A DNA stretch of 44,293 nt from Candidatus Parcubacteria bacterium (GTDB lineage: Bacteria > Patescibacteriota > Minisyncoccia > Phycocordibacterales > UBA5272): assembly GCA_039805745.1 (NCBI GenBank), contig JBDLTQ010000036.1, positions 1 through 44,293 on the forward strand, in the 5' to 3' direction. The translations under genes were made by a program, and so were the position numbers. This document shows, in pieces, positions 5,226 through 21,946 of this stretch; the stretch's first letter is position 1, and each line of letters begins with the position of its first letter. The notes beneath the pieces were generated by a model, which made no database searches, had not been told where the DNA came from, and saw only the letters and a list, made by a program, of their open reading frames with translations.

Positions 5226-6749
5226 TTATAGCGGAAGATTGGCAGGAGCAACACCTTTAATACTATCAATTCGAGGAAGGGTTGGGGTGGCCACAGTAGC
5301 GCCAGGAAGATGCCACAGTGTTGCTATTTCCTCTAAATTGTATGCCGAAACATCTGACGGGTGCGGGTGATCAAATGGGTGCATCAGTACTTCATATATC
5401 ATACGGAAGAGCTTACGTTGTTTCATTGTCGAACTCCAGAAAAACATATCCTCCCATTTGTCTAATGAGTCTCTTGCTTTAATATGAGGGAAAAATGCTT
5501 CACGTTCAACATAAGATTCAAACATCTCCTCACCTCTCCATGGAGTACGTCTCCCTCGAAAGTTTTGCCAAGGATACGAATATGGATCAGATGGACTAAG
5601 ACCGAAAGAATTAACACCGGCAAAAGGTTTACCAAAAGCTAGAATATTTTGAATTTGTTGACCGTTAAAATTTTCTTTCTTAGCAACATAGATAAGACGA
5701 ATAAGTCCAAGCATGACAGGTTTTGAAAGTTTTTTATTCACCGCCTCAACTTGCGCACGCTCTTCCATGGTAAAATCAAGATCTTTTTTAGGAACAGTTT
5801 TTGCTTTTTTATATATAATATCTTCGACACTCTCTGTGCCATCTGCAAGTTTTTTGGTAATAGTTTTCAACCCACCATACTCATCTTCAACCTTATCACC
5901 CTCTAAAATATATTTAGAGGTTCTCAATTGTTTCTTAAATGTCTCTGCCATACCCGAAAGACTCATATGTTCATGTGTTCCTTCATTAACAAAAAACTTT
6001 GGGAATTTCTTATCATTATAGACACCACCCTCATCCTGAAGAATTATCTGATACCACATATGCTCACCTTTTCCAAGCCCTCCCATCATTTCAAGGAGTG
6101 TTGCAAGTGGGTCTATTTTAAACTCTTCTTTAGTTTCTTTATCGAGACCATAATCAACATAGGTCTTAAGAGGAAGAAAATCTGCAGGCATCTGACATTC
6201 ATCACCCTTATCACTTGGTTCTTTGTTTCCTTTTTTAGAGTAAGGCTTCCCTGTTTTTTCGTTTATCGGTGTCCATGTTTTTGAAAGAGGAAACCCTCCT
6301 CCCCATATCGATACGTCTTTTGACAAATGATGATACCGTATCTTGCTTGTATAGTCATCAGCTTCTACTATTTCTATACCAGGATACTGAGAATAAAAAT
6401 TTGCCTCCACAAGCGCACGAAATTTCTTCTGAATACGGACATAGAAATGTATCACTCCTTCAGTAGATGCAATTTCAAGCGAAGAGTATGCAGGGAGGTT
6501 ACCTCTAAAATTTCTTGCGTATTTATCACTAATGCCACCAGATTGCATGAGGCATGCAATAGCCACCTCTGTTGCATATGGTGACTTGGTAATCTCTCGA
6601 GGGAGCTTTATTTCAAGCATTAACCAATCAATAGCATTAAGATGCTTTTGATTTATATACATCATCCAAAAACGCCACATCCATATACAGAGTAATAAAA
6701 AGAAAATGAGATAAAGTAAAAAAAATCCCATGTCAATAACAAATTGCAT
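5226..6749 (-). CDS. Conserved CPR-type membrane-anchored hypothetical protein
   Basis: N-terminal TM helix then LEIKLPREITKSP...SLEIAS...YSQYPGIEIVEADDY and C-terminal EEIATLWHLPG...APANLP; start chosen at ATG 6749, 7 nt after TGGTATACT. Confidence 0.75.
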   Translation of the reverse strand: MQFVIDMGFFLLYLIFFLLLCIWMWRFWMMYINQKHLNAIDWLMLEIKLPREITKSPYATEVAIACLMQSGGISDKYARNFRGNLPAYSSLEIASTEGVIHFYVRIQKKFRALVEANFYSQYPGIEIVEADDYTSKIRYHHLSKDVSIWGGGFPLSKTWTPINEKTGKPYSKKGNKEPSDKGDECQMPADFLPLKTYVDYGLDKETKEEFKIDPLATLLEMMGGLGKGEHMWYQIILQDEGGVYNDKKFPKFFVNEGTHEHMSLSGMAETFKKQLRTSKYILEGDKVEDEYGGLKTITKKLADGTESVEDIIYKKAKTVPKKDLDFTMEERAQVEAVNKKLSKPVMLGLIRLIYVAKKENFNGQQIQNILAFGKPFAGVNSFGLSPSDPYSYPWQNFRGRRTPWRGEEMFESYVEREAFFPHIKARDSLDKWEDMFFWSSTMKQRKLFRMIYEVLMHPFDHPHPSDVSAYNLEEIATLWHLPGATVATPTLPRIDSIKGVAPANLPL

Positions 6750-6892
6750 ATTCAAAAGTATACCATGTATAACCCTGTATATAATACACATGTATTACTA
6801 CAAAAAAAGTAGCCCAAGATGCTACTTTTTAGACAAACTACGACAGAAACAAAAAACGTGAGAATACAATCCTAAAAACTATAACGTACTAT

Positions 6893-7921
6893 TTAAGCAA
6901 GTGTGTAGTCTCCAGCAACTTTACGAAAATGCTTTGCGTTCTGAAGATTCACTAATACAGTATTTGGCTTAACAATACGTCTAGCAAGAACTCTTTTTAT
7001 AATTTCCTCTTTAGCGAGAGGGTGTCCAGCATCTCTTAATACTTCAGTAATAACATCACGAACAACTCCTCCTGTGTGACCCCAATCTTTAAGCCCGTAC
7101 ATACCACGTCCTACAAGCACAAAACGAGAATCCTTAATAAGCTCATTATGACAGGTAGCTACATGAGCTTTTTTCCCAAAAGTTTTATTAATCTCTTGTG
7201 CAACTTCCTTAAAGTGCATAGGTCGATTAGCTCGACGCATAATAAGATATGCATAGTCCTTAATACCTCGTGCTTTTACATGAGGAGATGAAGTCCTACC
7301 CCACTCACTTAACTGATTCTTCCCAATAACTTTAGATAAAGCAAGGTATCGATAAATAATTTCTTTATTCCCCTTATACTCTTCTACAAGATCATCGAGA
7401 TGCCCTATGAATCGATTAAAAACTTCCTCTTCGTGAATCAAATCTTCTTCGCTGATTGAACCGTACAACTTCTTAAGTGCTTCACGAACGTGTTCAGCAG
7501 TTTTTACATCAGTTGTAAAATGAGCATGAAAATGATCATCTTCTTTGTGTTTCTTAAAATCATCATGAAGAGCTAGATAAAGATTGATATGGTTTTGAAT
7601 CACAGGATCTTTAGAGATATGACGCATAAGATGGTCTTCTGAAACAACAGAACCGAGATCATTAATAATCTTTTTTAATTCTTCAAAAATAAAAAGATGC
7701 TCTTTGTATTCTTTAGATTTTTTAATTGTAGTAAGAGCAAAGTTTTCTATCTGTCTCACTCGTTCACGAGTAATATCATATGTCTTTCCAATAGCCTCAA
7801 GAGTCATCCTGCCTTCATTTTCTAGACCATAACGATTAACCACAATTTCTCTGGTGCGAGGATTAAGAGAAGTAAGTAACTTCTTCGAAACAGCTTTTGG
7901 TTTAAAGGTTATTCCTGACAT
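6893..7921 (-). CDS. Sigma-70 region 4 HTH plus HARE-HTH (RNA polymerase delta-like) domain protein
   Basis: TLEAIGKTYDITRERVRQIE (sigma region 4) and C-terminal HNELIKDSRFVLVGRGMYGLKDWG winged helix; no sigma region 2 seen. Confidence 0.8.
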   Translation of the reverse strand: MSGITFKPKAVSKKLLTSLNPRTREIVVNRYGLENEGRMTLEAIGKTYDITRERVRQIENFALTTIKKSKEYKEHLFIFEELKKIINDLGSVVSEDHLMRHISKDPVIQNHINLYLALHDDFKKHKEDDHFHAHFTTDVKTAEHVREALKKLYGSISEEDLIHEEEVFNRFIGHLDDLVEEYKGNKEIIYRYLALSKVIGKNQLSEWGRTSSPHVKARGIKDYAYLIMRRANRPMHFKEVAQEINKTFGKKAHVATCHNELIKDSRFVLVGRGMYGLKDWGHTGGVVRDVITEVLRDAGHPLAKEEIIKRVLARRIVKPNTVLVNLQNAKHFRKVAGDYTLA

Positions 7922-7970
7922 ATGATGACTAAGTTATATTGTAATACTCTACCAGATTTTTATAATAACG

Positions 7971-10415
7971 TCAAATAACGACATTGACAAGCTTGTTTTT
8001 GATAACAATTATCTTCTTTGGTTCGAAAGTTCCAACATATTTTTTATACTGATCATTCTCCTTAACAGCAAGAATAACTCTGGACTCATCAAGATCTCGA
8101 GGGAGTACACAAGTGGCTCGTAATTTACCCTCTATCTGTATAGCGTATGTTACTGTGCTTGCAAAAAGACTACTCTCATTGTACTTTGGCCATGAAGCTA
8201 CATGCACGGACTCAGTCTCTCCGAGAGTGTGCCATAATTCCTCTGTAACATGAGGAGCAAAGGGAGCTAAGAGTTTAATACATATGATATACACCTCCCT
8301 TGAAACTAAAGGTTCTTTTTCTAAGAAATTAAGCAATGTCATCATTTTAGAAATTGCTGTATTAAACTTAAATAGCTCGATATCTTCGCCTACTTTTTTA
8401 ATAGTTTGATGAAGAGCAATGGTAGCTTCAAGAGATAATTCACAACTGTTGACCACTTTTGACTGTAGTGCAAAAAAACGTTCAAGAAACCTACGTGAAC
8501 CAGCCATGCTTGATGTGCTCCACGCAACCGCTTGATCAAAAGGACCCATAAACATTTCGTATACACGAAGAGTATCTGCCCCATACTGCATCACTACTTC
8601 ATCTGGGTTTACTACATTCCCCCACCGCTTACTCATCTTACGCCCATCCTCTGCCATAATAAGCCCAACAGTCTGAAGCTTTGTAAATGGTTCATCATAT
8701 GACACAACGCCTATGTCATATAAAAATTTATGCCAAAATCGTGCATAGATAAGATGTCGTGTTGCGTGTTCTGCTCCACCAACATAAAAATCTACAGGTG
8801 ACCATTTTTTTTCTTTTACAGCATCAACAAATGAAGTCTCATTATGTGAATCAATGTAACGCAAGTAATACCATGATGACCCAGCCCACTGAGGCATAGT
8901 ATTAGTTTCTCGCGTAAATAGTTTTGCTTTTGAATCATCTTTTGGAAGAGATATAAACTCCCCATCTTCATTAATACATCCATACACTTCTACCCATTCC
9001 TTAATATTTGCAAGCGGACTTTCGCCTGTTCCTGTTGGTTCATACTCATCAACCATCGGAAGAACAATAGGTAGCTCGCTATCAGCAACTGCGTATGACA
9101 CATGGTTTTCATCAAACACAATTGGAAACGGCTCGCCCCAATAACGCTGACGTGCAAATACCCAGTCTTTTAATTTGTACGTACTTGTTAATTTCCCTCC
9201 AACCTTTTCAGTAATTTTAATACGAGCATCCGAAGAAGAAAGACCTGTGTACTCTGAGGAATCAATAACTACTCCATCTTCATGATGGACACCATTATCA
9301 GGATTATCGTGTTCTTTTTTTTGTATAACACACTGTATAGGCAAAGAATATTTCTGCGCAAACTCAAAATCTCTCTCATCGTGAGCAGGTACGGCCATAA
9401 TCGCACCTGTGCCATATCCTGCCAAAATATAATTAGCAATATATACCGGAATCTCTTCACCATTTACTGGATTTCTTGCTTTTATACCTGTATATACACC
9501 TTTCTTTTCTTGTACTTCTTTAAAAGAAAAATCTTGTTTCTTGGCTTCTTCTTGTATTTCATTAAGAACAGTGAGCACCTCTTCGTTCGGCTTCCACCCT
9601 TTCTCAACCCAAGAACTAGCAAGCTCATGAGAAATCGCCATAAAAGTTGCACCGTATATGGTGTCAGCCCGTGTAGTAAAAATACGAAGCGATTTTTGAT
9701 AAGGGAAACTAATAAGTGGAAAGTCAATCTCACTTCCTTCTGACTTACCAATCCAGTTTCTCTGAAGTTCTTTAATGTGAGGCTCCCAGTCAAGCTTATC
9801 TAAATCAGTGAGCAACCTGTCTGCGTAGTCAGTGATACGAATAGTCCACTGACGAAGTGGTTTCTTTTCTACCTCGCTACCACATCTTTCACACTGACCA
9901 TTCTCTAGATCTTCATTAGCAAGTCCAGTTTTACACGAAGGACACCAATTGATTGGGTCGTAACTTTCATATGCAAGACCTTTTTTGTACATTTGTTTCC
10001 ACATCCACTGCGTCCACTTATAAAACTTTGGGTCGGTAGTATTTATCTCTCGTTCCCAATCATAATTAAGTCCAAGCATCTTAAGTTGTTCTTTATAACG
10101 AGCAACATTCTTTGCAGTTGAGACATTTGGGTTTACTTTATTGTTAAGCGCATATTGCTCAGCAGGAAGACCAAATGCATCAAACCCCATTGGATGCAAG
10201 ACATCATATCCTTGCATCTTTTTCATACGACTATACACATCAGTCGCAATATACCCTTTAGGGTGTCCAACGTGTAGCCCGTCACCAGACGGGTATGGAA
10301 ACATATCTAAAATATAAAACTTCTTATTACTTTTTTCTGTAGTACGGTAAAGAAACTCCTCTTCCCATTTCTGTTGCCATTTTTTTTCAATACTATTGTG
10401 ATTATATAATTCCAT
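7971..10415 (-). CDS. leuS: Leucine--tRNA ligase
   Basis: MFPYPSGDGLHVGH (HIGH), KMSKR (KMSKS-like), FTTRADT and GTGAIMAVPAHD editing-domain motifs. Confidence 0.98.
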   Translation of the reverse strand: MELYNHNSIEKKWQQKWEEEFLYRTTEKSNKKFYILDMFPYPSGDGLHVGHPKGYIATDVYSRMKKMQGYDVLHPMGFDAFGLPAEQYALNNKVNPNVSTAKNVARYKEQLKMLGLNYDWEREINTTDPKFYKWTQWMWKQMYKKGLAYESYDPINWCPSCKTGLANEDLENGQCERCGSEVEKKPLRQWTIRITDYADRLLTDLDKLDWEPHIKELQRNWIGKSEGSEIDFPLISFPYQKSLRIFTTRADTIYGATFMAISHELASSWVEKGWKPNEEVLTVLNEIQEEAKKQDFSFKEVQEKKGVYTGIKARNPVNGEEIPVYIANYILAGYGTGAIMAVPAHDERDFEFAQKYSLPIQCVIQKKEHDNPDNGVHHEDGVVIDSSEYTGLSSSDARIKITEKVGGKLTSTYKLKDWVFARQRYWGEPFPIVFDENHVSYAVADSELPIVLPMVDEYEPTGTGESPLANIKEWVEVYGCINEDGEFISLPKDDSKAKLFTRETNTMPQWAGSSWYYLRYIDSHNETSFVDAVKEKKWSPVDFYVGGAEHATRHLIYARFWHKFLYDIGVVSYDEPFTKLQTVGLIMAEDGRKMSKRWGNVVNPDEVVMQYGADTLRVYEMFMGPFDQAVAWSTSSMAGSRRFLERFFALQSKVVNSCELSLEATIALHQTIKKVGEDIELFKFNTAISKMMTLLNFLEKEPLVSREVYIICIKLLAPFAPHVTEELWHTLGETESVHVASWPKYNESSLFASTVTYAIQIEGKLRATCVLPRDLDESRVILAVKENDQYKKYVGTFEPKKIIVIKNKLVNVVI

Positions 10416-10553: not shown

Positions 10554-11597
10554 TTATTTTCCGTAATACATCTCTGGACCAATCACTCGCTTATAGCACG
10601 TCTTTTCTGCGACATGATTCCAAAATGGTGATTGATCACCTTCATAGTAATAATTAGAAACTGAATAGTACATATCCGCACTACCGCTTACGATACCTTT
10701 TGTATCCATTACAGCAAGAGTCTGTCCACGAGCATCATAATTACGTGTTGTGGTAAATGTTGCACACAGTTCAAAAATTGCAGATGTAGCCATTTCTTTC
10801 TTATTTGTTACATAATTCATTTTGAAAGTAGGCTGTTGCAAAACAGTATAACCATACACCTCTTTTGTTTCTGGATCAGATGGTACTGTATATCCACCCT
10901 GAAATGCGTTATCAAGCTCCACAAGAGAAAGAGGAAGTTTGTCTGTCATTTGGAAACGATTAAAAACTTCTTGCTGAATACGTGACAGATCGGAAAGACG
11001 TATATTATCTATTTTTTTTGCGCGCATTTCACTTGGTGTACCAATAATAGAAATACTCCAACCTATAGAGACAGCAACAATACCTGTTGCAAGTGCAGTT
11101 ATAATATAAGGCACATACGTCTTTCTTGTATAATCACGACGAAGTGTATAAAAATAATATCCAAATACAGATATCGCTACAACAAACACTGACAAAGCTT
11201 TCAGCTCAAACCGAACCGATAACTCTCCACCTAAGTAGGTATAGACCACTGAGACTAAAGCTCCGATAAGGCTAAGGATAGTTACAAAAAGTGTACAATA
11301 AATAAGAGCTTTTCGTATCCATAAATCCTGCTTAAAAAGAAACTTCTGTATATCCCGAGAAACATACCACGATAAAGCAATATACACAGGAAACATAACA
11401 ACAAGTGATGCGATAGCAAAACGAACATCACTAAATGTCGTATCAACATAATAGGTATATGATAAAAGATCTATAAACTTTCTATCAATAGCAGTGAACA
11501 ACACCTGCAGAATATTTGTCACACTCACAACAAGTGAAATACCGATGCCAAGATAAAGAAACACGTCAAGGGCTTTTGTTTTTGTATCTGTTTGCAT
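10554..11597 (-). CDS. DUF5671-like multi-pass membrane protein
   Basis: About 5 TM helices, then GTPSEMRAKKIDNIRLSDL...DPET...FELCATF; start likely MQTDTK (11597) because the longer ORF touches the divergent gene. Confidence 0.75.
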   Translation of the reverse strand: MQTDTKTKALDVFLYLGIGISLVVSVTNILQVLFTAIDRKFIDLLSYTYYVDTTFSDVRFAIASLVVMFPVYIALSWYVSRDIQKFLFKQDLWIRKALIYCTLFVTILSLIGALVSVVYTYLGGELSVRFELKALSVFVVAISVFGYYFYTLRRDYTRKTYVPYIITALATGIVAVSIGWSISIIGTPSEMRAKKIDNIRLSDLSRIQQEVFNRFQMTDKLPLSLVELDNAFQGGYTVPSDPETKEVYGYTVLQQPTFKMNYVTNKKEMATSAIFELCATFTTTRNYDARGQTLAVMDTKGIVSGSADMYYSVSNYYYEGDQSPFWNHVAEKTCYKRVIGPEMYYGK

Positions 11598-11733: not shown

Positions 11734-12255
11734 ATGAATACTACTCCTCTTACTAAAATTGAGCAACTTGCCCTTTCGGTGACTCGTGGTGTTGGATCTA
11801 TTTGGTCAGTATGCATCCACACTCTTTTATTTAGTGGGGCTTTTATGCTTGTTGTTATTGGCTTCCCTCTTGAAAGAGTACTTCTTGTGCTTACTACTAT
11901 TGTTTCACTTGAAGCTATTTATCTGTCTATATTTATTCAAATGAGTGTTAATTTTCAAGCGCGCGCAATCGCAAGTGTTGAAAAAGAAATTGATGAAATC
12001 GCAGAAGATGTAGAAGGTATCGCAGAAGACGTCGAAGAAATTCAGGAAGATGTGGAAGAAATCGCAGAAGACGTAGAAGATATCCAAGAAAATGTTGAAG
12101 ATATTCAGGAAGATGTGGAAGGAATTAACAAAGACATTGACGAAATCCAAGAAGATGTAGAAGAAATCTCTCACGACGTAGAAGAAATCAATAAAGACAT
12201 TGATGAAATTCAAGAAGATGTAGAAGGAATTCAGAAAGAAGAAATAAAAAAATAG
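11734..12255 (+). CDS. DUF1003-like membrane protein with an acidic heptad-repeat tail
   Basis: LLVLTTIVSLEAIYLSIFIQMSVN motif, then about 12 (I-x-E-D-V-E-x) heptads; start at ATG 11734 after TGGTATAGT. Confidence 0.8.
   Translation: MNTTPLTKIEQLALSVTRGVGSIWSVCIHTLLFSGAFMLVVIGFPLERVLLVLTTIVSLEAIYLSIFIQMSVNFQARAIASVEKEIDEIAEDVEGIAEDVEEIQEDVEEIAEDVEDIQENVEDIQEDVEGINKDIDEIQEDVEEISHDVEEINKDIDEIQEDVEGIQKEEIKK
11989..12240 (+). repeat. Degenerate 21-bp coding tandem repeat
   Basis: Recurrent GAAGA(T/C)GT(A/G/C)GAAG units every 21 nt encoding IAEDVEE/IQEDVEG/INKDIDE. Confidence 0.85.
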
Positions 12256-12327: not shown

Positions 12328-12681
12328 TTACTCAAACATGTGAAGAACCCAGTTCACCACCGAAAGAACAGCTGCAAAATATATCGCCATAAGTAAATTC
12401 GGTATAGCAAACTCAGGGACAAGTCTATCAGCGAGCAAAATCATAAGTCCATTAATAATAAAAGAAAAAAGACCAAGCGAGAGTAAATTAATAGGAATAG
12501 AAATAAGCATAAAAATAGGCTTAATAGTGTGATTAATCACAGCAATCACAAGAGAAGTAAGAAGGGCTATCCATGCTGTGCCAAATGCTTGAGTAAGCGT
12601 TGCAAAAATGAGAGGCACACCAACACCAGTAATATAACTGGTAATCAAAATAGCAATAGTGCGGACAAAAATATAGTTCAT
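12328..12681 (-). CDS. YvlD-like 4-TMS membrane protein (putative holin superfamily IV)
   Basis: IKPIFMLISIPINLLSLGLFSFIINGLM signature; 4 hydrophobic segments. Confidence 0.85.
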   Translation of the reverse strand: MNYIFVRTIAILITSYITGVGVPLIFATLTQAFGTAWIALLTSLVIAVINHTIKPIFMLISIPINLLSLGLFSFIINGLMILLADRLVPEFAIPNLLMAIYFAAVLSVVNWVLHMFE

Positions 12682-12694
12682 AGAGATATCAAGA

Positions 12695-13078
12695 TTATGA
12701 GATGATAAGCTGTTGCACAGTTCTTAATTCTTCTTCACTTGCTTTATATATATGTTTTTTATCTAGATCATCTGGAGAGTCAGTAGGAATAAGATGAATA
12801 TGCGCATGAGGAACAGCATATCCTTCTACCATCACGCACACCCGTGCGCACCCCAATTTCGCCTTAAGCACTTGAGCCATATACCTTGTGCGATGCATTA
12901 CTTTATCAAATAGCGCTTCATCAAGATCGAAAAGGTAATCTACTTCTTGTTTTGGAATTACAAGGGTGTGACCTTTTTGTATTGGGTTACTATCTAGAAT
13001 TGCACACACATACTCATCTTCATATACCTTATATCCTGTAAGCTCATCATTAATAATTTTAGAAAAAATACTAGACAT
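12695..13078 (-). CDS. HIT family nucleotide hydrolase
   Basis: SIFSKII start, GHTLVIPK, histidine triad HAHIHLIP. Confidence 0.93.
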   Translation of the reverse strand: MSSIFSKIINDELTGYKVYEDEYVCAILDSNPIQKGHTLVIPKQEVDYLFDLDEALFDKVMHRTRYMAQVLKAKLGCARVCVMVEGYAVPHAHIHLIPTDSPDDLDKKHIYKASEEELRTVQQLIIS

Positions 13079-18659: not shown

Positions 18660-19499
18660 CTATACAGCAATTTTTCCTAGCTCTATCGCCATAAAGAGTG
18701 GTATCTCTTTTCGTGCCTTATTTTCTGCCTTTTGTTTAGGACCTTTCTCGCTTTCTTTGTGACTTGTCCATTCTTCAAGTCTTGTAATAGCGAGTCCATG
18801 CTTTGCAAATACTTTCATGTAGACCTGAAGCGGTCGATGAAAAGAGACTGTGTATTTTTTGTCATGCTTTTCTCCTGGTGTCATGTCTATCTTTATTTTA
18901 CTTTCACTCATATATTCCTCCACTCTTCGATACTGCTTACCTTCATGGTCATCATACTCCCAGTGCGTATGAGTCGGATTACGAAAAGCTGGATGATTGA
19001 GCACGATATATACCCTACCGTCATCTTTAAGTACACGAGCGATTTCTTTGAGTGTCTCGCTTAGCTTTTCGATGTTTTGAATAGCGAGTACACACACCAC
19101 CACATCTTGCGTCGTATCTTTCACCATGTAGAGGTCGTGTGATGGTGTGGTGAAGTAATGTGCTTGGAATTTTGTATCTTTGTTATTCTTCTCAGCTATC
19201 TCAATAAGTTCTTTTCCTATATCAGCACCGATAACGAACGCTCCAGCATCTACCAAGATACGCGAGAACTGCCCCTGCCCACAGGCAAGATCAAGGACGC
19301 GCTTCCCCTTCACCTCTCCGAGAAGTCGAAGGAGATTCGGATACACCACCTTCATGTGATAGGTATCACTATTTTTCTCTAAGTGTGTGTCATACCACGA
19401 CGCCACACCTCCCCATGAAGTGGTAGTATTATGCGTCTTTTCTTTTATCTCTTTTTTGGATGCACCTTTTTTTGTTGGAACGTGAGACGATTTCTTCAT
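18660..19499 (-). CDS. Class I SAM-dependent methyltransferase
   Basis: VLDLACGQG motif I, EIARVLKDDG; start may be 19499 or 19508. Confidence 0.9.
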   Translation of the reverse strand: MKKSSHVPTKKGASKKEIKEKTHNTTTSWGGVASWYDTHLEKNSDTYHMKVVYPNLLRLLGEVKGKRVLDLACGQGQFSRILVDAGAFVIGADIGKELIEIAEKNNKDTKFQAHYFTTPSHDLYMVKDTTQDVVVCVLAIQNIEKLSETLKEIARVLKDDGRVYIVLNHPAFRNPTHTHWEYDDHEGKQYRRVEEYMSESKIKIDMTPGEKHDKKYTVSFHRPLQVYMKVFAKHGLAITRLEEWTSHKESEKGPKQKAENKARKEIPLFMAIELGKIAV

Positions 19500-19570
19500 G
19501 TGATCCATTCTACAGGAATATGAGGTGAATGGCTAGGATAGGAATAGATTTAAGAGTTAGCACAAAAAAG

Positions 19571-19598
19571 AAATCCCTACATTTTTATGTAGGGATTT
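19571..19598 (-). terminator. Perfect hairpin downstream of the DGR-target-like gene
   Basis: AAATCCCTACAT-TTTT-ATGTAGGGATTT, followed by a U-rich tract on the minus strand. Confidence 0.65.
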
Positions 19599-19661
19599 GA
19601 GACGTATACTATGTTATAACTCTAAAAGGCAATCAAACACCTCAAGAGTTATGGATACAAA

Positions 19662-20255
19662 TTACTTGCGACGGAGGAAGACGAAACGGTGGTAACCGCT
19701 CCAGAAACTGTGAGGGTAGCCGTTGACAGCGCTGAGCCAGCGCTCGCCGCCATCGTGCGTAACGAAGAACAGGCTGAGGTTGCCATCCAAGTCAGTGATG
19801 GGCTCCATCGCAATGATAAGCCATTCACCCTTCGGCTGGTCCGTGTACTGCAAACGTAAGTAAGGACCGACTTCGGGTGGGCAGAGGTCCAGTCCGAACT
19901 CTTGGGCACGGACGTAGATGTCTTTGCGAGTTGCACCATCCTTGAAGCCGAGTTCGGCGACAGAAGCAACGACCAGTTCAACTTCCGTTTTGCTGGTTGT
20001 CGCCGTGAAGGCGGGCTTGCCGAGGATGTCATTTGCCCAGTCGTCAATCTTCATCCCTGCCGACTTTACCGCCTTGCGGAAGTCATCAGCAGTTTGAAGA
20101 CCATTGCCGAGCTTGATGGTTTTCCACGTCTTCCAGACCTTTGCAGTTGCAGAGACAAGGAGTTCGCCAGAAAGAAAACGCTTCACACCTTCCATACCGC
20201 CGAGCTTGTTGACCAATGCTTCCACTTGTCCGAGTGTAAGTTCACCGTATTTCAT
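19662..20255 (-). CDS. Hypothetical protein; putative DGR target (C-type-lectin-like variable C-terminus)
   Basis: Visibly higher GC than neighbours; AGGAG 6 nt before ATG 20255; C-terminus DGNLSLFFVTHDGGERWLSAVNGYPHSFWSGYHRFVFLRRK rich in NNC/NNT codons. Confidence 0.75.
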   Translation of the reverse strand: MKYGELTLGQVEALVNKLGGMEGVKRFLSGELLVSATAKVWKTWKTIKLGNGLQTADDFRKAVKSAGMKIDDWANDILGKPAFTATTSKTEVELVVASVAELGFKDGATRKDIYVRAQEFGLDLCPPEVGPYLRLQYTDQPKGEWLIIAMEPITDLDGNLSLFFVTHDGGERWLSAVNGYPHSFWSGYHRFVFLRRK

Positions 20256-20419
20256 TATCTTCTCCTTGAGCTGTTTGCTCATTGGTTTCTCACTGTCCGT
20301 GAGTAAAGGAGCTATAACTGTACGTAGTCATAGCCAGAAAATCTCGCAAAGAATGTTTCTGTACAAGGTCTTTTGGCTATGACTACTGTCGTAAGCAATA
20401 CTGTCAATGAACTATAAAT

Positions 20420-20447
20420 AGTATACACTAAAATACTATTTTGTCAA
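20420..20447 (-). promoter_or_regulatory. Sigma-70 promoter for the 19662-20255 gene
   Basis: TTGACA-16 nt-TATACT on the minus strand. Confidence 0.65.
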
Positions 20448-20515
20448 GCAATTAAAGCCTGAAATCGCACTATAAATAAAACATACTTAATGTATATAAG
20501 CTAGAAAATTAAAAC

Positions 20516-21946
20516 CTAAAACAACCCATCACCCTTCTCACCCCATCTCTTCATATATTCCTTCATATCTCCCCTTTTCTTCACCCCGCTTTCTGCCATG
20601 TAGCGTACAGTGCCGAAGACAAGCCTTCCAAACCACGGCCTATCATGCAGTCCTCCGATACTCCACGCGCACCCTACAAAACCATTAGGGTCACGACCGT
20701 CGAGTTCATAGATATCGTTTAAACACACCGCTATACGCATCGCTTCTTCTGGAGACTTCGTCCATTCAAGTATCTTCTTCGCCCAATACATACGCATGTA
20801 ACCATGCATCTTGCCAGTCTCTACCATCTGTCTCTGTGCGCTATTCCAGAGGTCATCATGAGTCTCTGCTTGTTCAAACTGTTCTTGTGAGTAGATGTAC
20901 TCACGCACGTCACTACTTGCCTTCACAAGAGTGACTTTCGCCCATGATGGAAACCCTGCAAATGAATCATACTTTTCATTATAAAAACAAAAGTTCTCCG
21001 CAAGCTCTGCCCGCACTACACACTCTTCTATAAACGATGCCACACTACCCATCTGACCATTAGAACCATTCGCCACATCATCGAACGCTTCCTCTACGCG
21101 AAGGTGTTTCTTTTCTAACAGTGTTCGTATAATGGTACGCCTTGAAACATTTCCATGTGTGATATATGGTGAGAGATTACTCTGACCATCTTTTGTAAAA
21201 TCATTACGATCAGTATCATATCGTGTGAGCTTCTCATCCAAAAACTGCTCGAGCACTTCATGTGCACCCTTTTCTCCTGGAGTAAACATTCCTACCCCCA
21301 TCACCTCTTCATTACATCTGATGTTGCTTTTTATTTCATTCCAATCAATTGGTGCAAGGGTTTTGAGAAGGCCTTGATTCGCGTCATGTACACAAAGCTT
21401 TCCGTGAGATTCGAGAAACTGGGGGAGTTTCTTGTGAATCTTGCTTCGTATAGTGCGCGCAGAAAACTCTTGCTTCGGCGATGTCTCCCACACTGGCACA
21501 CAGTTATGTGTATCTACTTCATAGAGGGGTGTAGTGTTATGTTTCAAAAATACTTCTTTCCACTTTCGCATAAAGCGTAGCGGTAGCTGATCAATAACCA
21601 CAGCACCAATATGAGATGATACAGTTTGGAATGTTCTCTGTGTATCAAAAAGTTTCTCGTGTTCAAAGGTGATGACAAGGGGTATGTTATGTACTCGCAA
21701 CACCTCCTCCACTTCCTGAAGTGATGGGAGCACCCAATCATAAAAACGCCTTGTTGCTCCTTCCCACACATAGTTCCATATGACATAGTTCACGATAAGC
21801 TGTGCTCCACGCTTCTGTGCAAGTTCTTGTGCGAAAAGGAGCGCATCATTATCCTGTGCACGAACATCACGACACATCTGATAGACGACTGTACCACTTG
21901 AATATGTATTCTTTGAAAGCTGTCTGACACGAAGAGGATTTACCAT
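20516..21946 (-). CDS. phrB: Class II CPD photolyase
   Basis: RDVRAQDNDAL, SNLSPY, VRAELAENFCFYN, GKMHGYMRMYWAKKILEW, DGRDPNG, HDRPW. Confidence 0.95.
   Translation of the reverse strand: MVNPLRVRQLSKNTYSSGTVVYQMCRDVRAQDNDALLFAQELAQKRGAQLIVNYVIWNYVWEGATRRFYDWVLPSLQEVEEVLRVHNIPLVITFEHEKLFDTQRTFQTVSSHIGAVVIDQLPLRFMRKWKEVFLKHNTTPLYEVDTHNCVPVWETSPKQEFSARTIRSKIHKKLPQFLESHGKLCVHDANQGLLKTLAPIDWNEIKSNIRCNEEVMGVGMFTPGEKGAHEVLEQFLDEKLTRYDTDRNDFTKDGQSNLSPYITHGNVSRRTIIRTLLEKKHLRVEEAFDDVANGSNGQMGSVASFIEECVVRAELAENFCFYNEKYDSFAGFPSWAKVTLVKASSDVREYIYSQEQFEQAETHDDLWNSAQRQMVETGKMHGYMRMYWAKKILEWTKSPEEAMRIAVCLNDIYELDGRDPNGFVGCAWSIGGLHDRPWFGRLVFGTVRYMAESGVKKRGDMKEYMKRWGEKGDGLF

Follow-up and report, generated by a model that had tools for sequence, protein, structure and literature searches.

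The gene, its leader and its surroundings

The window, i.e. the whole stretch of 44,293 nt analysed here, is contig C36 of a Candidatus Parcubacteria assembly of 730,701 bases in 37 contigs, 95.8% complete. It carries, on the minus strand, a short gene for a variable protein, followed by two hairpins and preceded by a structured leader and a promoter-like site; the neighbours on either side are genes for a methyltransferase and a photolyase (Table 1). The ATG at 20255 is the likely start of this gene: AAGGAG lies 8 nt upstream of it, and the residues MKYG with which the protein would then begin are also those used by most homologues in a 33-row alignment.

Table 1. Coordinates of the features of the window and of the diversity-generating retroelement (DGR) carried by C28, another contig of the assembly.
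Feature	Position	Strand	Remarks
Methyltransferase gene	18660-19508		
Intrinsic terminator	19571-19598	-	12-pair stem, 4-nt loop, T-run; terminator scan
AT-rich stem-loop	19616-19652	-	9 nt after the stop; not homologous to the post-VR element
Variable-protein coding sequence	19662-20255	-	197 aa + stop; ORF list, homologue starts
Alternative longer ORF	19662-20282	-	upstream ATG at 20282, 206 aa
Shared module	19662-20453		~790 bp, promoter to stop
Variable repeat (VR)	19664-19796	-	133 nt: last 44 codons and first base of the stop codon; ungapped alignment to the L003 TR
Invariant VR 3' end	19666-19690	-	25 nt identical to the L003 TR; alignment positions 106-130 without mismatch
Predicted C-type-lectin-like domain	residues ~49-206 (206-aa numbering)		AlphaFold2 model and fold matches
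Structured 5' leader	20256-20419	-	between promoter and ribosome-binding site
Leader small hairpins	20268-20280 and 20289-20303	-	just before the ribosome-binding site
Leader long hairpin, 13 bp	arms 20324-20336 and 20375-20387	-	self-match
Promoter-like site	20420-20447	-	TTGACA-16 nt-TATACT, 11/12 matches, conserved in homologous loci
Photolyase gene	20516-21946	-	
C28 RT	5923-7011	-	362 aa; RVT_1 match 98.7 bits, the one RT found in the assembly
C28 bAvd	6973-7323	+	65.6 bits, cut-off 40
C28 TR	7374-7501		adjacent TR/VR pair, A-only
C28 post-VR match	7814-7872		E 0.0028
C28 target	7869-8765	-	298 aa, GC-rich, without Pfam family
C28 VR	7875-8002		17 mismatches in 128 nt, 17/17 at TR adenines

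The gene is GC-rich, as first proposed from the sequence: 200-nt windows across 19600-20199 have a GC content of 0.50-0.575 against 0.29-0.45 in most flanking windows, and the gene as a whole stands at ~55% GC in a genome at 38% (0.34-0.40 per contig). The same bias is visible in the relatives described below. Over the window and 79 related loci, the part of the target gene outside the variable repeat has a median GC of 0.55 versus 0.43 for the flanks and is the higher of the two in 70 of 74 loci; it exceeds the GC of the reverse transcriptase (RT) gene (0.36) in 31 of 31. Adenine mutagenesis alone does not explain this high GC, because A and T are both low.

The last 44 codons are of the AAC, AGC, TTC, CAC, GAT, GGC and TAC type, set between the residues W-L, G, P, W and RFVF. 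The run of C- or T-ending codons that had been pointed out in the last ~40 codons is indeed there, beyond what chance would give, and it is to this part that variation among homologues is confined.

No known family accounts for the protein: Pfam gave DUF6744 as best match at a non-significant E of 0.41, and PHROGs and NCBIfam gave zero matches. Its AlphaFold2 model, built on the 33-row alignment, has a mean pLDDT of 87.5 and a pTM of 0.74. Foldseek against the PDB returned zero matches at E<=0.001; its top rows, at E 0.03-0.4, are C-type lectin domains. A second structure search, independent of Foldseek, gave five chains at Z>=5 and none at Z>=8, the level treated as safe by the tool, so that all matches here lie below it: the C-terminal domain of Bd2740 (Z 5.8, the best), EgtB (5.4), PvdO (5.4), Treponema denticola TvpA (PDB 2y3c, 5.3) and CarF (5.2), all of them C-type-lectin (CLec) or FGE-type folds. 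CLec, FGE or link-module folds make up nearly all of the best 50 rows of that search; lower matches, over residues ~49-206, include Mtd of the Bordetella phage (PDB 1yu0, Z 4.3), the C-terminal domain of Legionella Lcl and many animal C-type lectins. Since the matches are uniform and the protein is homologous to cassette-linked DGR targets, the C-type-lectin fold proposed for it is a reasonable reading of the model, at weak scores (Z 4-6) and with CLec-like matches only. TvpA (138 residues aligned, rmsd 3.9) and Mtd (118 residues, rmsd 3.8) would thus share with the window protein a fold of C-type-lectin type and the C-terminal location of the variable residues; they differ from it by a sequence identity of only 8-12%, by its much smaller size and by its lack of a trimerisation domain, and, judged by eye, it also seems to lack a recognisable signal peptide or lipobox.

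Upstream of the gene, the leader appears to be conserved as RNA: in an alignment of 13 leaders, seven pairs are predicted and six of them show compensatory changes. Rfam gave three matches on 19400-20600, all far under their gathering scores, and assigns the leader to no family; this conserved and structured leader may act as a cis-regulatory RNA for genes targeted by DGRs. Homology with four related loci (L003, L004, L016 and L024) begins at 20447-20453, and the module shared with them has its 5' edge six bases before the promoter. In four genomes of the same genus (G020, G013, G023 and G009) the two flanking genes are adjacent, with no match to the module between them, and the spacing between matched blocks is 108-672 bp there versus 1,126-1,500 bp in the window, which favours an insertion of the module here. 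The module is present in 3 of the 18 same-genus genomes searched, each time at another place; one related locus with the bare gene (L004) and one with a whole cassette (L005) lie within regions syntenic to other contigs of the window's genome. Not every genome of the genus has the photolyase gene at this place either: in several of them a penicillin-binding-protein gene directly follows the methyltransferase gene, and for this reason the intergenic region looks like a hotspot for accessory genes.

The variable repeat and the cassette-linked relatives

A protein search gave 742 relatives at E<=1e-3 out of 868 candidates, encoded in 333 genomes (the scan was made at one genome per species), from which 79 loci were fetched. 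The relatives are labelled Paceibacterota, Patescibacteria or Minisyncoccia. A few family members (L030, L064, L069, L011 and L037) come from MAGs that bear the labels Bryobacterales, Verrucomicrobiota or Gammaproteobacteria, which may reflect mis-binning or mislabelling of contigs of the candidate phyla radiation (CPR), or else transfer outside CPR.

In 37 of the 79 loci the target gene is followed, within ~1.5 kb, by a template repeat (TR), by Avd on the opposite strand and by the RT on the same strand. The TR is a second, untranslated copy of the last ~44 codons of the target. Of the 35 cassette loci scanned, 33 have a VR that either matches the TR or faces a TR adenine at 112-114 of 114 positions. 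The closest relative of the window gene (L003, same genus, protein 89% identical) follows this rule strictly: its VR (771-903) and its TR (1263-1395) differ by 17 mismatches, 17/17 at TR adenines. One locus, L039, has two TR-like copies behind its target, at 10878-11009 and 11359-11490.

Aligned without gaps, the window VR differs from the TR of L003 at 20 of 133 positions. These mismatches affect 17 of the 37 TR adenines and only 3 of the 96 other bases (Fisher p 8.6e-9), and 14 of the 17 changed adenines are at codon positions 1-2; the TR of L024, which is out of register, was left out of the VR/TR comparison. Between the window gene and that of L003, dN is 0.22 and dS 0.036 in the VR, against a dN/dS of 0.14 in the rest of the gene; non-VR values of 0.14-0.25 indicate purifying selection outside the VR, where the gene diverges by 6.5% between the two genomes. 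In wastewater runs X12 and X5, a relative's TR has T on the plus strand at the same places of the VR.

The protein alignment tells the same. Over the 33 homologues, conservation is high along the first ~165 residues, and the last ~45 are interspersed with variable positions, following the pattern DGxLxLFxVxxDxGxRWLxxxxGxPxxFWxGxxRFVFLRRK, whose x are hypervariable even between proteins 87-89% identical overall. The variable columns are those encoded by adenine-containing (AAC-type) codons in the TRs of the sister cassettes, and the translated TR reads N there. The differences from the sister TRs being specific for adenines, the VR was written by a DGR; on this sequence evidence it is a true DGR variable repeat, written by adenine mutagenesis. 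The original prediction of a DGR-type target with an adenine signature is thereby supported, and the homologues are hypervariable at the same adenine-encoded C-terminal positions.

Ordinary positive selection or relaxed constraint on surface loops, unrelated to DGRs, might also render a C-terminus variable, and such a view would suit a genome in which a TR for the window gene was not found. It would leave without explanation the A-only TR lying directly behind the homologous gene in 37 of 79 loci, the concentration of the window's own differences on TR adenines, and the coincidence of the variable protein columns with AAC-type TR codons; we give this view hardly any credit.

As only three differences from the sister TR fall outside adenines, diversification was recent, on the scale of the divergence of these genomes. 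The 25-nt invariant end of the VR sits at the place that the IMH (initiation of mutagenic homing) occupies in the BPP-1 system (PMC3240598), and by analogy it may have the same function. With its intact ORF and this TR-identical end, the window gene would therefore be a copy recognisable by homology, were a matching cassette present or acquired. Both points speak against the reading of a frozen copy that is favoured below.

The DGR on contig C28 and the question of service in trans

The original prediction placed the machinery elsewhere and had the gene served in trans. As to the machinery it was right, since the genome does encode a DGR RT and an Avd, on contig C28; the cognate template was not found in the 730-kb assembly. 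The C28 RT carries IGNLTSQ, in agreement with the IGxxxSQ motif of DGR RTs. This DGR (locus L002, 5923-8765) adjoins a serine recombinase and a restriction-modification pair, with a tRNA-like sequence at the contig end. Three other contigs carry remains of the same type: on C5 a frameshifted C28-type target (12428-13029) with a VR-like end that agrees with the C28 TR at 75/97 non-A positions, on C18 a near-identical N-terminal fragment of such a target (2451-2819) breaking off into AT-rich sequence, and at the start of C31 (~96-224) a TR/VR-like fragment with 63/97 versus the C28 TR. These decayed copies together suggest that, small as the genome is, DGR targets have been turned over in it repeatedly.

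For the window gene itself, both searches of the assembly for a template were negative. A blastn-short search with 19571-20300 against all 37 contigs returned the self-hit only, and an adenine-tolerant TR scan gave as best non-self place one with 113 of 150 positions allowed and 47 identical, i.e. A-rich noise. The C28 DGR is at first sight an attractive mutator: besides an intact RT and a bAvd it has a TR whose partner VR differs from it at adenines only, its architecture is that of the cassettes serving the window gene's family, and its target bears the post-VR element of that family (see below). Its TR, on the other hand, serves the adjacent C28 target, and it agrees with the window gene at 43/97 non-A positions, just like places taken at random on other contigs (43-44). 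The two VRs do not resemble each other at their 3' ends, and BLASTP shows no similarity between the target proteins (best E 2.9). On the TR scan and the dissimilarity of the proteins we reject C28 as the mutator of the window gene, and diversification in trans by this DGR strikes us as barely credible. Service in trans is thus not supported by the comparisons of the sequences.

In the sequencing runs X1 and X2, the probable source of the genome, one contig spans the 19571-20255 stretch without differences; assembled contigs being blind to rare variants and no proof of absence, this weighs neither for nor against diversification. No second contig covers the whole VR in X1/X2; in X12/X5 the contig with the relative's TR did align there. 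Short pieces of low depth from X2, at 19768-19856, differ in the conserved part too and correspond to other family members.

Copies without a cassette and the element behind the variable repeat

The window gene is not alone in standing without a cassette. Besides the 37 loci with a cassette next to the gene, 23 of the 79 have no TR, Avd or RT over at least 3 kb on both sides, 7 have none over at least 3 kb downstream only, and 12 are too near a contig end for a decision; stand-alone copies thus represent 30 of the 67 decidable loci. A search for the cognate TR at the protein level, a method that overlooks the TR of roughly one known cassette in five, was negative in all 15 orphan-bearing whole genomes (0/15). 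An RT search in the first five of the orphan genomes found no match in two of them (G002 and G005), and in those bearing an RT the TRs belong to other targets. A single orphan genome among the 15 holds a TR of the window gene's family (L033, with the orphan L053); there, L053 is excluded as a remote target of the L033 TR by 27/50 mismatches at non-A bases. The presence of a VR-like gene and of a DGR in one genome does not make a remote target, and this should serve as a warning for annotation.

A tree of the non-VR parts (64 rows, L005, L017, L021 and L028 being left out) requires 21 changes of the orphan/cassette label, at least five of them forced by starred, i.e. well-supported, branches, and the label is no more clustered on it than shuffled labels. 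The window gene belongs to a starred clade of four rows, together with two cassette-linked copies and one orphan, and adjoins the cassette-linked L003. That the tree puts it beside a cassette-linked copy, not with the orphan L004 (SH-aLRT 84, not starred), suggests that the window gene and L004 were orphaned separately.

In both the window and L004, the first base of the stop codon is the last one still homologous to the cassette-linked relatives; the part common to VR and TR ends at this base as well, and three different stop codons (TAA, TAG and TGA) have been completed by the new flank. A retro-copy of the mRNA is an unlikely origin for the orphans, given that the -35 and -10 boxes are part of the shared module. 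One may wonder whether CPR DGR targets become orphans regularly, through a defined mechanism, and not by random decay. We regard this as a speculative and rather improbable idea; if true, the target would be freed from its post-VR hairpin, TR, Avd and RT by a break, or by retrohoming that aborts, at the site where the cDNA integrates, and a selected variant would be frozen as a promoter-to-stop module, under purifying selection and movable between loci.

The region behind the stop codon distinguishes the window from most cassette loci. Cassette-linked copies have there a ~60-nt element, with CTTGG/CTTTG repeats around a hairpin that starts ~21 nt after the stop and has a GC-rich stem of 5-6 bp and a loop of 4-6 nt. 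A simple scan for perfect stems flagged 15 of 34 cassette loci, mixing in terminators, and was replaced by a covariance model (R1) built from 11 clear cases with perfect stems and applied after the stop with a cut-off of E<=0.01. This model finds the element in 31 of the 37 cassette loci, its 11 seeds included, and in 15 of the 30 orphan loci. The stem covaries (its middle pair is GC in 17 cases, AU in 11 and UA in 11), both sides having changed in 34 cells versus 10.9 for shuffled data, in an alignment fitted to the model, which favours covariation. There is no match at L004, the close orphan relative, nor at the window gene, the only one in the window being at E 0.41 on the plus strand (19157-19197).

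Two hairpins were foreseen behind the window gene, one of them 9 nt after the stop, and both were located exactly where announced. The role of DGR-type downstream hairpin that had been attributed to them does not hold: the distal one is an intrinsic terminator, and the proximal one has no relation to the post-VR element of the family. Around the distal hairpin, the 45 nt of 19560-19604 have a folding energy of -15.7 kcal/mol (z -5.9, 0/200 shuffles as stable); around the proximal one, the 57 nt of 19605-19661 have -13.9 kcal/mol (z -2.75, 3/200 shuffles as stable). Since the relatives cease to be homologous no more than two bases from the stop codon, the two hairpins belong to the local flank. 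In BPP-1, according to Guo et al. 2011 (PMC3240598), retrohoming is efficient only with a hairpin/cruciform directly behind the VR, and the sequence of its stem can vary. The cassette loci of the present family likewise carry a covarying hairpin after the VR; the window copy differs in having, in place of it, the AT-rich stem-loop and the terminator. Given the variable stem in BPP-1, the unrelated stem-loop 9 nt after the stop might conceivably substitute for the post-VR hairpin. As a target site, the window VR has the TR-identical 3' end and lacks the hairpin element of the family.

Could the window gene nevertheless be a true remote target, still diversified in trans by a cognate TR-Avd-RT that escaped assembly or sits on an unbinned, co-resident mobile element? 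The genome is a draft in 37 contigs, and at 95.8% completeness it could miss a 133-nt TR and an RT, DGR loci being often badly assembled. The identity of the 25-nt 3' end of the VR with the sister TR and the mere three non-A differences also speak for it. Remote targets are documented in other DGR lineages, e.g. the seven of the Treponema DGR, which likewise have the VR gene far from the RT, and Avd, TR and RT of BPP-1 function in trans, according to Wu et al. 2018 (PMC5758913). The same paper defines remote targets by A-only differences from the genome's own TR, and in this the window gene fails. Neither the blastn-short nor the adenine-tolerant scan yields a TR, the assembly has a single RT, the protein-level search of other orphan-bearing genomes gave a cognate TR in 0/15, and the window lacks the post-VR element present in 31 of 37 cassette loci, whose BPP-1 counterpart is needed for efficient homing (PMC3240598). 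On balance a remote target, the main rival reading, seems to us a rather unlikely explanation.

We therefore favour, as the probable reading, that the window gene is an orphan DGR target whose VR is no longer diversified and which is kept as a binder of fixed specificity. A DGR wrote the C-terminal 44 codons of a small, C-type-lectin-like CPR protein, a cDNA made from the TR with random bases opposite adenines having replaced the VR. In this assembly the ~790-bp module sits orphaned, without TR, Avd, RT and post-VR hairpin. The gene would be transcribed from its own predicted strong promoter and ended by the intrinsic terminator, and the protein would be retained as a fixed-specificity binder under purifying selection outside the VR. 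That diversification has most likely ceased follows from the absence of TR, Avd, RT and post-VR hairpin around the gene, and from the sole DGR of the assembly serving another target.

DGR targets of Patescibacteria/CPR were reportedly described by Paul and coworkers in 2017. CPR DGRs, CLec-fold targets, remote targets and target-site hairpins are already in print (PMC8144416, PMC5758913 and PMC3240598). The nearest known relatives are the CPR DGR clade 2 targets (Roux et al. 2021, PMC8144416), which come from the same host group and are small proteins with a C-terminal VR, typically without transmembrane or other domains. The window protein similarly has no transmembrane or Pfam domain, and its sister loci consist of target, TR, Avd and RT; the window copy differs in standing without a cassette, in lacking a cognate TR anywhere in the assembly and in the absence of the post-VR element. 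Our literature searches, with supplements outside their scope, found no description of stand-alone CPR DGR targets, of two classes of orphans, or of a CPR post-VR element.

Small, domain-less CPR DGR targets are functionally unexplained, and the window gene adds a case to them. It also illustrates that a DGR-written VR can be recognised from sequence alone, without its TR. With nearly half of the decidable copies devoid of a cassette, some keeping and some lacking the conserved post-VR hairpin, these two classes offer a way to learn how diversification is turned off and which cis elements CPR DGRs need. Among the orphans, L009 shows two more post-VR matches 1-2 kb downstream of its gene (11748-11809 and 12688-12748), which may mark additional targets.
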